A stretch of 32,000 nt of DNA from assembly GCA_963699255.1 (NCBI GenBank), contig OY969425.1, forward strand, positions 1,080,001 through 1,112,000, read 5' to 3'. The DNA is from an uncultured bacterium. GTDB lineage: Bacteria > Margulisbacteria > WOR-1 > CAVSGV01. Shown here one piece after another: positions 25,003-27,821 of this stretch (position 1 is the first letter of the stretch; each line of letters begins with the position of its first letter). Below the pieces are notes generated by a model. That model was not told the origin of the DNA. It searched no databases and worked only from the letters and a program-made list of their open reading frames with translations. The position numbers and the translations under genes are program-made.

Positions 25003-25048
25003 GTTGGGTATAATCAGAGGTCTGGCTCGGCAGGAAACGGGTCGAGCC
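25003..25048. repeat. Inverted copy of the tRNA-Pro promoter and microhelix module
   Basis: gttgggTATAATcagaggtctGGCTCGGCAGGAAACGGGTCGAGCC is the reverse complement of 21122..21167, with a 3-nt difference (tct versus gat). Weaker identity extends to gtgaat (24995..25000). Confidence 0.9.
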
Positions 25049-25081
25049 ATTTTATCGTTCCCGCAAACCATTGCGGATTTT
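25021..25081 (+). ncRNA. Candidate ~60-nt transcript: microhelix fused at the discriminator position to a copy of the tRNA-Met trailer and terminator (a tRNA-gene mimic)
   Basis: The -10 TATAAT lies at 25009..25014. The microhelix GGCTCGG..TCGAGCC-A is at 25024..25049. The trailer follows, with terminator CCGCAA-acca-TTGCGG-ATTTT at 25061..25081. Confidence 0.3.
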
Positions 25082-25231
25082 GGGCGGCTTGGAGCGGCGC
25101 TTGCGTCGCGACAAGCCGCCTTATTCTTAGCTGAAAGCAAGTTCTCTTCCGCCGAAGGGTCGCAAAGCGGGCCGTAGGCGGCATTTTTAGCGTCAGCGCA
25201 GGAAGGATCTCCGCTCTCGGAATACAATAAC
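25047..25231. repeat. IR2-L: left copy of a 185-bp inverted repeat
   Basis: It is the reverse complement of 27568..27752 with 184/185 matches. The single mismatch is at 25206. Confidence 0.95.
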
Positions 25232-25296
25232 ATGCCTTCTATTGCCTCTATCGAATATTATGCCACTTTCCGATGTGCCATTTAATTTTTCCATCA

Positions 25297-25591
25297 TTTC
25301 CAGTATAGCATTTTTTTGCTTTTCTCCTGTAAAGGTCGCTCACGGAGGGACTTCGTATAAAGCACTCTATCCAGAAAAATCCTCATCCTTGCGGATATTT
25401 TCTGGTAAAAGTTCGCTCCCTCCTCCAGTCGCCCGCCTCCGGCGAGGCTCCTTCCGGCCCTCCGCTTCGTTACGCTCTCTCGCCCATATCTCCGCTTAAG
25501 GTAGGCTCGTTCGCTTCACTCGCTTCGGGTGACAGGCGCAAAAAAATGCTCCTCCTTCCTTGTATTCATATTTTTTACAGGAGGTGGTCAT
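25297..25591 (+). ncRNA. Conserved structured non-coding leader (copy 2)
   Basis: It is homologous to 11719..12015. The hairpins are at 25371..25405 (CCAGAAAA...TTTTCTGG) and 25431..25448 (GCCCGCC-tcc-GGCGAGGC). ORF 25242..25499 is not conserved in frame in copy 1. Confidence 0.5.
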
Positions 25592-26116
25592 ATGTCTCGT
25601 ATTGTTGGTATTGTTGGTTCCAGGTCTCTTCCCGCTTCTTTTTCCTCGCTCATTTCCTCGCTTGTGTCCGCGTTAGTTGCTCGTGGTTTCAGGGTGGCCT
25701 CAGGCGGCGCTGTAGGGGCTGATCAGTTTGCTCTTTCAGCCCTCGTTGAGCAGGGTTTGTCTGCATCGGGTGTTGTTTTTTCTGCCTGGGCTTCCGCTTC
25801 CGGTTTTCCTGTTCCGGTCCGGCCTCTTGTTTCCCGTTTTCTTGCTTCCGGTGGTCAGGTTGTTTGGGGTTCCGGTTCGTCGTCTCAGCCTCGTTCAGCG
25901 GTGGTTTCCGCGCTTCTCGGCAGGAACAGCCGTCTTGTTTCAGCCTGTTCGCTTGTCATTGCTTTCATTCACGGCCAGTCCCGGGGAACGCTTTACACCA
26001 TCCGTCAGGCTGTCAGGCGCGGTATTCCTGTTTATGTGTTCCTTTGCAGTGAGGCTTCATTGCCAGCTGATTTGGCTCCTCACTGTTTAGTTATAAATAA
26101 AAGGGAGGTGGTTTAG
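25592..26116 (+). CDS. Minimal DprA-like protein (DNA_processg_A Rossmann core only, 174 aa), with an extremely adenine-poor coding strand
   Basis: RBS AGGAGGTGG precedes ATG 25592. The product contains IVGIVGSRSLP...VASGGAVGADQFALSAL...ALLGRNSRLVSACSLVIAFIHGQSRGTLYTIRQAVRRGIPVYVF. This follows the DprA pattern (GSR ... SG.A.G.D ... RN.... S..V.V.E....SG.L.T...A...G..V...). The SAM and winged-helix domains of full-length DprA are absent. Confidence 0.65.
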   Translation: MSRIVGIVGSRSLPASFSSLISSLVSALVARGFRVASGGAVGADQFALSALVEQGLSASGVVFSAWASASGFPVPVRPLVSRFLASGGQVVWGSGSSSQPRSAVVSALLGRNSRLVSACSLVIAFIHGQSRGTLYTIRQAVRRGIPVYVFLCSEASLPADLAPHCLVINKREVV

Positions 26117-26117
26117 T

Positions 26118-26309
26118 ATGGTTTTCATTCCCATTCATCCGTGCTGTTACTGTGGAAAAACCGAGACAGGATATGCCTGTACGACAGCAGAAAAAGTCGA
26201 GTGTTTTAAATTTCTGAATTATATTCAGAAACTCAACAGAATGAGGGCGCAGAAAGTGCTGATAAAAGAGCTTAAATATTTACTAGAAACAAACAAAGGA
26301 GGTAAATAA
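26118..26309 (+). CDS. Cys-rich 63-aa protein conserved in both elements
   Basis: The product begins MVFIPIHPCCYCGKTETGYACTTAEKVECFKFLNYIQKLNRMRAQKVLIKELKYLL... It is coupled to the DprA-like stop (TAGTATG). Its homologue is 12553..12729. Confidence 0.7.
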   Translation: MVFIPIHPCCYCGKTETGYACTTAEKVECFKFLNYIQKLNRMRAQKVLIKELKYLLETNKGGK

Positions 26310-26311
26310 TC

Positions 26312-27790
26312 ATGAAAGCAGCGATCTATACGAGAGTTTCCACTGATAGTCAGGCAGAAGTTGAATTTAATTCCTGTGAGACGCAGGAGCTGAAAATAAG
26401 GTCATTCATTGCCAGCCAAAATGATATCGAGATTTATAAAGTCTATTCGGATCAGGGATATTCAGGAGCCAATCTTGACCGCCCTGCCTTGAAAGAAATG
26501 CTAAACGATATCCAACAGGGCAAGATCGATACAGTCATCGCATATAAGATAGATCGATTAACAAGATCGCCAAAGGATTTCTATCAGTTAATTGAGATTT
26601 TCGAGAAGGACAATGTCAGCTTTCTATCCATTACGGAGCGATTCGACACTTCCACTCCTTCCGGCAGGCTCTTGCGGAACATTATGCTGACATTCGCCCA
26701 ATTTGAAAGAGAACTTATAAGCGAGAGAATAAGGGACAAGATATTTGAGCGGGCTAAAAAAGGCATGTGGAGCAGCGGAAAACCTCCATTCGGATATAAG
26801 AAGGAAGATAAGAAGCTGGCAATTGAGCCGAGAGAGGCCGAGATAATTAAAACAGCTTTTGAAAGCTTCGTTGCCTACCCTTCAATCTCCGCTCTCTACC
26901 ATAAGCTGAAGGAAGCTAATATGCTGAACAGGGCGGGCTTGCCGCTTTCGAAGACGACTCTCGGCGGCATATTGGAGAGCATTGTCTATACAGGAGTGAT
27001 AAAGCACAAGGGCGCTTTCTATCCGGGAATACACACTCCGATAGTATCAAAAGAACTATTTGATGAGGTCCGGGATTTGAGAGTTGGCCGCGTCAGGCCG
27101 AAGAAGTCGATGAGTTATAATTATTCATTATTGCCCGGCCTTGTGCAGTGCAAAGAGTGCGGCTCGATAATGGGCGCGACATTCACCAATAAGATCAATA
27201 ACGGAGAGCGCATCAAATACTTCTATTACCGCTGTTCGCTTATAAATAGACGAGATAGATCGTTCTGCGATATCCGGCAGGTCAGCGCTGACCGGCTTGA
27301 TGATTTCATCATAGACAACCTTGACAAGATACGCAAAAACAAACAATACCTTGATAGTTTAATATATGTGCTAAACCATAATGAACAGGGTGTGTCAGAA
27401 AGTATCGAACTCAAGGGGTCATACTCTCCGATAACCGCCGAAAGGACACTGGAAATACTTAAAAATATTGTCGACGGCTCAAAGTTGAAAGGCAAAGTCG
27501 AAAAAAGGATCATCATGAAAAGGCACATCGAAAAGGTCATATATTCGAAAGAGACAATAGAAGTCAGGTTATTGTATTCCGAGAGCGGAGATACTTCCTG
27601 CGCTGACGCTAAAAATGCCGCCTACGGCCCGCTTTGCGACCCTTCGGCGGAAGAGAACTTGCTTTCAGCTAAGAATAAGGCGGCTTGTCGCGACGCAAGC
27701 GCCGCTCCAAGCCGCCCAAAATCCGCAATGGTTTGCGGGAACGATAAAATGGGCCCTGCAGGGATCGAACCTGCGACCAATCGGTTATGA
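26312..27790 (+). CDS. Large serine recombinase
   Basis: The N-terminus is MKAAIYTRVSTDSQ, followed by YKIDRLTRS and FAQFERELISER, with a CKECGS...YYRCS zinc ribbon. RBS AAAGGAGG is present. The last ~74 codons are encoded by IR2-R, and the ORF stops inside antisense tRNA-Met (...GPAGIEPATNRL). Confidence 0.9.
   Translation: MKAAIYTRVSTDSQAEVEFNSCETQELKIRSFIASQNDIEIYKVYSDQGYSGANLDRPALKEMLNDIQQGKIDTVIAYKIDRLTRSPKDFYQLIEIFEKDNVSFLSITERFDTSTPSGRLLRNIMLTFAQFERELISERIRDKIFERAKKGMWSSGKPPFGYKKEDKKLAIEPREAEIIKTAFESFVAYPSISALYHKLKEANMLNRAGLPLSKTTLGGILESIVYTGVIKHKGAFYPGIHTPIVSKELFDEVRDLRVGRVRPKKSMSYNYSLLPGLVQCKECGSIMGATFTNKINNGERIKYFYYRCSLINRRDRSFCDIRQVSADRLDDFIIDNLDKIRKNKQYLDSLIYVLNHNEQGVSESIELKGSYSPITAERTLEILKNIVDGSKLKGKVEKRIIMKRHIEKVIYSKETIEVRLLYSESGDTSCADAKNAAYGPLCDPSAEENLLSAKNKAACRDASAAPSRPKSAMVCGNDKMGPAGIEPATNRL
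27568..27752. repeat. IR2-R: right copy of the 185-bp inverted repeat, comprising the last 3 nt of tRNA-Met plus its 3' trailer
   Basis: See IR2-L. On the tRNA strand it contains the tRNA-Met terminator (27718..27738) and a second hairpin GGCGGCTTG-N20-CAAGCCGCC. Confidence 0.95.
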
Positions 27791-27821
27791 GCCGACCGCT
27801 CTACCGCTGAGCTAAGGGCCC
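27750..27821 (-). tRNA. tRNA-Met-type (anticodon CAU). It has elongator features (G1-C72), and Ile2 identity cannot be excluded
   Basis: The sequence is GGGCCCTTAGCTCAGCGGTAGAGCGGTCGGCTCATAACCGATTGGTCGCAGGTTCGATCCCTGCAGGGCCCA. The anticodon loop is CTCATAA. No CCA is encoded. Confidence 0.85.

Follow-up and report, generated by a model that had tools for sequence, protein, structure and literature searches.

The 32,000-nt stretch of Margulisbacteria DNA analysed here, hereafter the window, carries at the 3' end of a tRNA-Met gene what we read as a 6.6-kb integrative island (21119-27752), of which 25047-27821 would be the recombination and establishment module. The module holds a conserved non-coding leader, a minimal gene for a DprA-like protein, a four-cysteine micro-open reading frame (micro-ORF) and the gene of a large serine recombinase (LSR). 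Tied to observed insertion boundaries, family, site spacing, covariation, base composition and protein fold, the reading of the element as an island placed there by its own integrase appears quite probable to us, and the fuller reading, in which the DprA-like protein is moreover expressed from single-stranded DNA (ssDNA), is the one we favour with some reserve. A tRNA-targeting serine-integrase island is a known kind of element, represented here by an undescribed family. A second copy (copy 1) lies next to tRNA-Glu in the same window, and the genome carries a third, which is intact. The features at tRNA-Met are as follows.

21119-21167: distal island end, where the last 47 nt of X (P-type half-site) recur in inverted orientation and abut the native tRNA-Met trailer; attR-type junction
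21269-24853, minus: cargo operon, low in GC (33-40%)
21269-22000, minus: trypsin-like peptidase (cargo, Pfam)
22125-23114, minus: helix-turn-helix (HTH)/sigma70_r4 protein (cargo, Pfam)
23111-24853, minus: HTH_17 and GHKL ATPase (cargo, Pfam)
24906-24934, minus: canonical promoter-like site for the cargo operon, TTGACA-17-TAATAT with TG
24955-25049, plus: X, conserved element-borne flank, GAGTGGGGG..GCGCCCGC..GGTATAAT..GGCTCG-N14-CGAGCCA
25024-25069: complete attP-like 46-bp dyad, GGCTCG ... CAAACC, at the X/arm junction; inverted relative to the tRNA/arm junction
25047-25258, plus: left arm of inverted repeat I1, 212 nt; folds as structured RNA/DNA in plus orientation
25259-25591, plus: conserved non-coding leader, with blocks 82-88% identical to copy 1
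25300-25335 and 25527-25550, plus: 5' and 3' arms of the long-range closing stem of the leader
25302-25333, minus: reverse promoter-like elements, -35 TTTACA (25333-25328) and extended -10 TGC-TATACT (25310-25302)
25580-25587, plus: ribosome-binding site (RBS) GGAGGTGG of the DprA-like gene
25592-26116, plus: minimal DprA-like gene (SLOG Rossmann core), 174 aa, sense strand 10% A
26118-26309, plus: four-Cys micro-ORF, 63 aa
26312-27790, plus: LSR, 492 aa
27541-27752, minus: right arm, the immediate 3' trailer of tRNA-Met on the tRNA-sense strand
27730-27771: 42-bp attL-type junction, from arm CRAACC at 27730-27735 (GGTTTG on the plus strand) to T-loop GGTTCG at 27766-27771 (read CGAACC)
27750-27821, minus: tRNA-Met (CAT), intact, the putative integration target

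Boundaries of the island

The extent of the insertion is set by comparison with L008, a locus from a closely related genome (88% identity of the DprA-like protein). There, tRNA-Met and tRNA-Pro are 145 nt apart with no element between them, and L008's own element sits at tRNA-Val(tac) instead. Because the L008 site is empty, the 3.9-kb cargo and the module in the window are a single insertion. The native tRNA-Met trailer and terminator (ccgacccccggtcggg) now stands at 21103-21118, so that all of 21119-27752 is inserted sequence. The distal end is marked by inverted repeat I3 (21121-21167 and 25003-25049, 96% identity), and positions 6793-6936 of L008 match window positions 21121-21264 as a homologous terminus. 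The initial annotation had described a compact 2.7-kb element of three genes; in the light of the empty site this unit is better taken as the recombination module of a larger, cargo-carrying island. Its gene content was read correctly: the three ORFs are tightly coupled, with 1 nt (TAG, T, ATG) between the DprA-like gene and the micro-ORF and 2 nt between the micro-ORF and the recombinase, a conserved non-coding region precedes them, and there is no capsid, Rep, relaxase or transposase gene in the 2.7-kb unit. The inverted repeat said to be flush with tRNA-Met is indeed so placed, at a length of 212 nt and 98% identity (25047-25258 and 27541-27752) and not of 185 bp. The low adenine content of the DprA-like gene, the reverse promoter-like boxes of the leader and the anatomy of the att sites had escaped that annotation. 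In PADLOC the cargo gave weak matches to PDC-S45 and mad1.

Recombinase and proposed attachment sites

The recombinase matched the Resolvase (PF00239, E 2e-40), Recombinase (PF07508, E 3.8e-11) and Zn_ribbon_recom (PF13408, E 6.4e-10) profiles, and an N-terminal RVST motif (MKAAIYTRVSTDSQ) contains the catalytic serine. Its nearest relatives of solved structure are the LSRs of TP901-1 and A118, the match spanning residues 24-204 of the A118 integrase; phage recombinases are less than 40% identical to it. The last ~80 codons lie within the right arm and the ORF continues antisense into tRNA-Met.

In complete serine-recombinase loci the tRNA gene is flush with one arm at its 3' end, and X always lies on the non-tRNA side of the arms. 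The end of X, GGTTYG-N14-CGAGCCA, is conserved among elements at different tRNAs, and those adjoining elements are of ten kinds (Val, Lys, Tyr, Ile, Ala, Met, Arg, Glu, Asn and Leu). In nearly all loci the paired motifs span 46 bp at the X/arm junction (GGTTYG...CRAACY), a distance constant in 11 of 13 loci, and 42 bp at the tRNA/arm junction, where the outer motif is the GGTTCG of the tRNA T-loop; both window copies show the same 46/42 geometry. According to Rutherford and Van Duyne, the outer motifs of serine integrases reportedly lie ~5 bp further out in attP than in attB, and work on the A118/LI integrase is said to describe a symmetric attP with long half-sites and a hybrid site whose B-type half is ~4 bp shorter. 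The site anatomy seen here seems to fit such LSR rules, with a dyad-symmetric attP longer than attB, the latter judged by its tRNA-side half. Judged by their motifs, the tRNA/arm junction would be attL-like and the junction of the inverted X copy (X') with the trailer attR-like, and the X/arm junction would be an intact attP-like site kept inverted in the island.

We propose that the LSR recombines the element-borne attP, i.e., the 46-bp dyad at the X/arm junction, with an attB at the 3' end of a tRNA gene. The left half of this attB would be the universal T-loop and acceptor end of the gene, in which GGTTCG stands 4 bp closer to the crossover; since this motif is universal, many different tRNAs would be usable and almost any tRNA gene could serve as a landing site. 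The tRNA would be left intact on integration, the arm taking the place of its 3' trailer. Members of the LSR family catalyse attP x attB integration, and excision with the help of a directionality factor; the comparison made here is between occupied and empty sites.

Inverted arms and orientation of the module

An inverted repeat of 170-240 nt brackets the module in every complete serine-recombinase locus; in copy 1 and in two further loci, L023 and L017, the arms enclose only the recombinase, together with an HTH gene of the XRE type in copy 1. The two arms of one element share on average 94% identity vs 73% between elements, and therefore the arms must interact. Folded as a consensus, the tRNA-sense strand of the arms reaches -53.5 kcal/mol with 37 pairs, 12 compensatory changes and invariant G.U pairs, vs -36.4 kcal/mol for the opposite strand; the tRNA's 3' trailer, which is the arm, is thus predicted to be a structured RNA antisense to the last ~80 recombinase codons. 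Such an RNA could plausibly repress the recombinase once the island sits behind the tRNA promoter.

The island retains a second complete attP-like site in inverted orientation; the module therefore lies between the 212-nt arms, and it appears in both orientations relative to the tRNA. The tRNA lies at the recombinase side in most loci and at the DprA side in L010 and L003. The latter is 100% identical to L006 over 1958 nt, and the two diverge exactly at the arm edge, into tRNA-Tyr and X respectively. The module might invert by exchange between the inverted sites.

Two other readings of the bracketed module have to be weighed. In one, the arm-bounded 2.7-kb unit is a transposon in its own right, moved by its serine recombinase and ending in the 212-bp inverted repeats, which by chance landed between tRNA-Met and an unrelated island. 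Long terminal inverted repeats flush with a tRNA, the presence of the unit at many tRNAs and the many contigs of 2.0-2.6 kb that hold just this unit would all suit a transposon. The ends of these short contigs fall within the arms, however, and are accounted for by assemblies breaking there; moreover X lies beyond the repeat, is conserved from one tRNA to another and is never missing beside the unit, the X/arm junction falls within the 46-bp dyad, which takes the site out of the repeat, the inverted X copy at the far cargo end and the empty L008 site make cargo and unit one insertion, and in copy 1, L023 and L017 the bracketed stretch is the recombinase alone. We consider a transposon quite improbable. 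It is also unlikely, in our judgement, that the recombinase is mainly an invertase and the module a phase-variable switch, its operon lying downstream of, or convergent with, a strong tRNA promoter, with integration ancestral or done by something else. In its favour are the inverted sites on either side of the recombinase gene, as at hin, the occurrence of both orientations, the concerted evolution of the two arms and, in a distant relative, L113, a 2.3-kb inverted repeat around recombinases. Against this, Pfam finds no other integrase in the island, the tRNA/arm and X'/trailer junctions are exactly the hybrids that attP x attB exchange would leave, the protein has the domains of an integrase and not of a small invertase, and inversion and integration are not mutually exclusive. 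The integrative island remains our preferred reading.

Two observations on L113 touch this layout. Its inverted repeat (4286-6544 and 10205-12456, 89%) contains a DprA-like gene of normal composition paired with an XRE-HTH gene, and it brackets two tyrosine recombinases, a larger-scale echo of the repeat-around-recombinase arrangement.

A family of elements

Relatives of the DprA-like protein were gathered as 194 protein matches at E up to 0.001; a scan of a genome collection gave 19 loci, and one of a metagenome collection gave 80 loci drawn from 152 relatives. Related loci number at least 100 in all, nearly all in Margulisiibacteriota, and the named relatives belong to Candidatus Margulisbacteria, Saganbacteria and WOR-1. 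At least 14 independent complete loci repeat the architecture, which rules out chance, and the order DprA, micro-ORF, recombinase is conserved. The view that the two window copies stand for a family, and not for a one-off or a local duplication, is thereby borne out. The tie between DprA and the serine integrase is looser than the term "hard-wired" used in the initial annotation implies: the leader-DprA-micro-ORF unit also heads arrays with three tyrosine recombinases, with a cyclic oligonucleotide-based antiphage signalling system (CBASS), with restriction-modification genes or, in Deltaproteobacteria, with SSB, ArdC and a tyrosine integrase. In a census of the Margulisbacteria loci (86 neighbouring proteins), the best 25 of 116 neighbour families, ranked by frequency, are dominated by integrases and by restriction-modification and other defence genes. 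The leader, the minimal DprA-like gene and the four-Cys protein may accordingly form a portable establishment unit heading variable arrays of cargo and recombinases.

That the gene combination had not been recognised from described elements agrees with our searches of phage, plasmid and IMG/VR collections and of the literature: the DprA-like protein has no match in PLSDB or IMG/VR, and we found no paper linking Margulisbacteria to serine recombinases, or DprA to serine recombinases at tRNAs.

Several of the related loci deserve mention for their neighbours. L103 carries a CBASS (9028-11126) directly after the DprA-like/micro-ORF unit, with a patatin effector (E 3e-103) and an oligonucleotide cyclase (E 3e-123). 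Cargo flanked by short inverted X copies in L016, L108 and L109 (L016 1883-6838) comprises CrcB, DUF190, an extra enolase and a major facilitator superfamily transporter, and looks like a fluoride-resistance set. In L001/L019 (WOR-1 MEUD01000001), L062 and L096 the order leader, DprA, micro-ORF, ORF174 is followed by three consecutive tyrosine recombinases, and this variant stands at the end of a large defence island with SNF2, AAA_15, HEPN_AbiV, methylase and ResIII genes.

The DprA-like protein and the micro-ORF

The assignment to DprA withstood both profile and structure comparison. The ORF matches DNA_processg_A (PF02481) at E 1.6e-13 over profile positions 45-187 of 212, and the AlphaFold2 model of the 174-aa protein has a pLDDT of 90.8. 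Its top PDB matches in Foldseek are ShosA and then the DprA proteins of H. pylori, R. palustris and S. pneumoniae, at TM ~0.7 (4ljl, 3maj and 3uqz at E 1e-6 to 1e-8). The next matches are molybdenum cofactor (MoCo)-carrier, YpsA and LOG proteins, which places the protein in the SLOG Rossmann fold. What is present is the core only (it aligns to residues ~135-270 of a 318-residue chain); the SAM-like N-terminal and the winged-helix (DML1-like) C-terminal domains are missing. The protein is highly conserved, with a mean column identity of 73% in the alignment. ShosA binds ssDNA and RecA (PMC12961424, PMC11961720), and by homology the DprA-like protein would do the same. A phosphoribosyltransferase corresponding to the ShosT partner was found neither among the window ORFs nor in the best 25 of 116 neighbour families.

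The micro-ORF protein, surveyed in 66 unique sequences, has four conserved cysteines (PC-x2-C-x8/9-C-x7-C) followed by a helical tail and has no Pfam match. Its start lies 1-2 nt past the DprA stop in 59 of 80 loci, which makes the two genes translationally coupled. The 63-aa protein of the island is a candidate zinc-binding accessory or directionality factor.

A conserved leader with a putative reverse promoter

The closing stem of the leader (AGCATTTTTTCGC..CCCTGTCA with TGACAGGG..GCGAAAAAATGCT) is common to the 68 unique leaders compared and shows many compensatory changes; 907 of its 914 pairing cells (99%) are Watson-Crick and a single one is G.U. On the opposite strand an extended -10, TG(C/T)+TAnnnT, is present in all 68 leaders, its hexamer varying in the manner typical of real -10 elements, and a -35 of the form TTGACA or TTTACA in 55. 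The spacer between them measures 19-20 nt and includes a conserved bulge of 4-6 nt. No forward sigma70-type site precedes the DprA-like gene in either window copy. In duplex DNA the reverse boxes point away from DprA. In folds of the minus strand they form the non-template arm of the hairpin, with the -10 at the fork at the base of the stem, and the template arm runs into DprA; the base of the stem is at least 26 nt from the ATG in all leaders.

This arrangement recalls Frpo/ssi sequences, stem-loops that rebuild -35 and -10 boxes, are active only on ssDNA and often precede ssb (PMC9849209, PMC11541004). By analogy, the minus strand of the island, while single-stranded, would fold the leader into a hairpin that rebuilds a -35 and an extended -10 aimed at DprA, and the DprA-like gene would be transcribed from this folded strand. 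That the leader is such a single-strand promoter has, in our estimate, a little less than an even chance. The ssDNA might come from transformation or from mobilisation in trans.

Distant homologues vary in the same features. L113 and L114, with near-normal composition (19-23% A), have no such leader, and in L113 a forward TTGACA-17-TATTAT promoter stands 87 nt upstream of the DprA-like gene. In the deltaproteobacterial loci L115, L117 and L118 only the DprA-like gene is poor in adenine (4-8% A, falling to 1-2% over some stretches of 200 nt). The sole promoter-like site within 800 nt in L117 (4% A) is on the minus strand, TTGACG-16-TATGCT with TG, and the closing stem of the L117 hairpin pairs the DprA-proximal arm with bases just upstream of this -10. 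Its downstream array contains SSB and ArdC-N, then a tyrosine integrase; an SSB and ArdC gene set downstream of the DprA-like gene is typical of plasmid leading regions.

Some further observations concern the leader. A CCTCCTTCC...AGGAGGTGG hairpin (25551-25587), with equivalents in copy 1 and L008, can sequester the DprA RBS. Rfam gave no match for leader or arms; at E up to 1 it returned tRNAs, a thiamine pyrophosphate (TPP) riboswitch and two weak sub-threshold matches overlapping tRNA genes. A target-specifying guide in the leader was considered and dismissed, the leaders at tRNA-Met, Glu and Arg (the window copies and L023) being near-identical. L115 (Desulfoferrobacter suflitae GCA_022603395, JAIBKA010000001 5.5-20 kb) is a homologue with 8% A from a cultured organism and hence a possible experimental system; an ISAZ013-type transposase interrupts its downstream genes and SSB follows further on.

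Adenine depletion of the DprA-like gene

Adenine makes up 10% of the sense strand of the gene at tRNA-Met and 9% of that in copy 1, vs 32-38% in the genes that follow. Over 103 DprA-like homologues the mean is 7.3% (range 3-14%), as against 29.5% (standard deviation 6%) in 654 neighbouring ORFs, among which no other gene is adenine-poor save at the GC-rich Rokubacteria locus L026. Four-fold degenerate sites hold 3-9% A and ~77% pyrimidines. Diversity by codon position (0.23 / 0.15 / 0.49) identifies the gene as a real coding sequence, and the residual adenines are those of the start codon, of conserved Asp, Gln, Asn and Thr codons and of the RBS of the next gene. The limits of the depletion are sharp: it begins at the ATG and ceases ~30 nt short of the stop codon. 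By exhaustive profile search the family is small, with 34 clusters at E up to 1e-30 and 882 members in all, and its distant members form two groups, one of ordinary composition and one almost devoid of the amino acids that need adenine-containing codons.

Overlapping or antisense coding was rejected as a cause, all three antisense frames containing stops (mean 4-7) and only frame +1 being open, and so was an origin in high-GC DNA, T being the commonest base.

Expression from ssDNA is, we suggest, what the sense strand has adapted to in becoming poor in purines and purged of adenine. The reason for the loss of adenine might then be sought in a weak hybrid between pyrimidine RNA and purine DNA or in an unpaired, unprimable template; a thymine-purged template would let the transcript leave, or would itself stay unpaired, unprimed or untargeted.

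Alternatives for leader and composition, and weak points of the reading

Doubtful, yet the most serious contender for the leader, is an ordinary structured 5' untranslated region (UTR) of an mRNA started in X or at the tRNA promoter, with the opposite-strand -10 as a divergent cargo promoter and the loss of A protecting the mRNA where adenine is attacked or scarce (through RNases specific for A, of the HEPN or toxin kind, through anticodon nucleases directed at tRNAs for NAN codons, or through ATP depletion by defence systems). In its favour, the conserved GGTATAAT box in X faces the arm and leader, the reverse promoter would serve the strand of the cargo genes, the anti-Shine-Dalgarno hairpin can hide the RBS, the neighbourhoods are defence islands with HEPN, CBASS and restriction-modification genes, and the plus strand folds well too (z = -5.4). 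Against this, the closing stem has one G.U pair in 914 cells, and the arm RNA of the same elements keeps invariant ones. The same boxes are kept in leaders of loci that have neither X nor arms, hairpin insertions between -35 and -10 (L017, L062 and L101) would break a duplex promoter and not a folded one, genes upstream in L117 are co-directional so that a leftward promoter would be antisense, and co-transcribed downstream genes have no similar protection. As for composition, we find it very improbable that the depletion is mutational and unselected, the product of an adenine-mutagenic reverse transcriptase as in diversity-generating retroelements (DGRs) or of strand-specific deamination. A 3' edge that is sharp and a 5' edge that is more gradual, and a loss strongest at synonymous sites, could be so explained; but neither a reverse transcriptase nor a template repeat was found in the window or among the best 25 of 116 neighbour families, the protein is highly conserved and not hypervariable, A is replaced mainly by C and T and not by G, which does not suit deamination, and the bias recurs in separate phyla and tracks the promoter type.

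Expression of DprA from ssDNA in an integrase-borne island stays our preferred reading, and several points weigh against it. The integration model does not account for the retained inverted attP, and recombination of attL with attP is not known from canonical serine integrases. For copy 1, the search for an inverted X copy that would mark the distal boundary found none. The evidence for two orientations comes from metagenome contigs and could reflect mis-joins by the assembler, since the arms exceed the read length. On the side of the promoter, folding would have to push the 4-6-nt bulge out of the helix for the 19-20-nt spacer of the Margulisbacteria leaders to fit. The leader fold favours one strand only weakly (of 34 leaders, 23 have the better z on the minus strand, p = 0.05), and in duplex DNA the extended -10 could fire leftward, toward the cargo genes of the same strand. 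A conserved TATAAT-like box in X faces the arm, the leader and DprA, so that a long structured mRNA leader is conceivable. No relaxase, type IV secretion system (T4SS), Rep or other source of ssDNA was found near the Margulisbacteria loci among the best 25 of 116 neighbour families. Finally, the downstream genes share the operon, yet the depletion stops at the end of DprA, a limit that the ssDNA model alone does not predict.

The second copy and other features of the window

The initial annotation had reported a second copy with the same gene order beside tRNA-Glu. The copy exists, with the features listed below; the compact order does not hold, ORF174 and ~1.5 kb of other sequence separating the micro-ORF from the recombinase.

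11722-11742 and 11950-11973, plus: leader arms
12013-12551, plus: DprA-like gene, frameshifted, 9% A
12553-12729, plus: micro-ORF
12745-13269, plus: ORF174, conserved accessory gene of the second architecture, no Pfam match
14782-16801: recombination segment
14782-14827: attP-like 46-bp dyad
14799-14964 and 16573-16738: arms, a 166-nt inverted repeat
15031-15237, minus: XRE/Cro-type HTH gene, divergent from the recombinase, within the inverted repeat
15325-16767: recombinase
16710-16751: tRNA/arm junction, 42 bp
16727-16801, minus: tRNA-Glu

The 166-nt repeat encloses just the XRE-HTH gene and the recombinase. An 8-nt tandem duplication (CTACACAC) near 12388-12396 frameshifts the DprA-like gene; as sequence this poor in adenine is nearly free of forward-frame stop codons, the new frame runs on to nearly the same end. 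In the non-coding stretch from ORF174 to the arm lies a 50-nt direct repeat (13946-13995 and 14218-14267, 84% identity).

Elsewhere in the window, AATGACAAATGTCCAATGACCAATGTCAAAT-type boxes are repeated upstream of tRNA-Pro and of both tRNA-Val genes (21012-21096, 28589-28627 and 28792-28830) and probably form a shared tRNA promoter or upstream module. A TPP riboswitch (18735-18846, plus; 57 bits, above the gathering score) lies directly 5' of an AIR-synthase-related (ThiL-like) gene (18837-19877). The region 83-6217 encodes a 2044-aa ORF with three to five internal ~650-nt repeats (FlgD-Ig-like 'GDGKYQYEIT' units), followed by a FadL/TodX-like outer-membrane transport protein, an NHL-repeat protein and a 1135-aa protein with a C-terminal outer-membrane beta-barrel; it is probably a host surface-protein cluster.

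Comparison with known systems

Taken at its widest, the analysis points, tentatively and with a chance clearly below even, to a hitherto unrecognised establishment device of mobile islands in several uncultured and anaerobic phyla: a DprA-like RecA-loader transcribed from incoming ssDNA by a hairpin promoter on a thymine-purged template (sense-strand A 1-10%), joined in Margulisbacteria to an integrase that reads the tRNA T-loop. Nothing comparable has been described for three parts: the minimal, adenine-purged DprA gene, the reverse-promoter hairpin, and the structured arms with their retained inverted attP.

The closest parallel for the leader is Frpo/ssi of the F and ColIb-P9 leading regions. 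Both are non-coding regions of ~250-330 nt with a long stem-loop that rebuilds -35 and -10, as the leader is predicted to do, both lie directly 5' of a gene for a (here predicted) ssDNA-binding establishment protein, in both the boxes in duplex form do not serve the downstream gene, and SSB and ArdC occur in the array of the deltaproteobacterial relatives as well. Unlike Frpo/ssi, the leader is known from sequence alone and from uncultured host phyla, shares no sequence similarity with it, is followed by a DprA-like gene and not by ssb, psiB or ardA, has no oriT, relaxase or T4SS nearby (among the best 25 of 116 families) and shows a non-canonical -35/-10 spacing in Margulisbacteria (19-20 nt; 16 nt in L117). 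Known leading-region genes are reported to be GC-rich and codon-adapted, not adenine-free (PMC13478746). If the leader is indeed a single-strand promoter, the logic of leading regions would extend beyond enterobacterial plasmids to small integrative islands of uncultured phyla, and DprA-like proteins would join SSB, PsiB, ArdA and ArdC as establishment factors.

With DprA/Smf and ShosA the protein shares the Rossmann-like DprA/SLOG core (TM ~0.7) and the conserved GxGxD and RN..L motifs. It differs from them in being the core only, without a ShosT partner, in its extreme codon and nucleotide bias and in being encoded on mobile islands, with two or three copies per genome. A gene held at 1-10% A on one strand across phyla, with razor-sharp edges, is an anomaly without a described cause, and its explanation would reveal selection on nucleic acid rather than on protein.

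The LSR has the same domain set and catalytic serine motif as the enzymes of phiC31, Bxb1, TP901-1 and A118, SPbeta SprA and TnpX/TndX, and as in those systems there are a dyad-symmetric attP of ~46 bp, a shorter attB half-site and a small co-encoded protein that is a possible directionality factor. Unlike them, the island targets the 3' end of many tRNA genes via the T-loop box, still contains, once integrated, another complete attP-like site in inverted orientation, and has 212-nt arms that include the 3' end of the recombinase gene. An attB half-site that is the universal tRNA T-loop box would make this a natural multi-target integrase, of practical interest for genome engineering.

Hin, Gin and the FLP of the yeast 2-micron plasmid likewise have the recombinase gene between inverted sites. 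The island departs from them in its repeats of ~215 nt (vs 26-34 bp) and its recombinase of the large type, with no enhancer or Fis site known here and no replication genes. On the excised circle the two inverted repeats would, as in these systems, mark off two halves capable of inversion, and the internal inverted attP, together with arms that evolve in concert, makes the island a testable case of an integrase module that flips.

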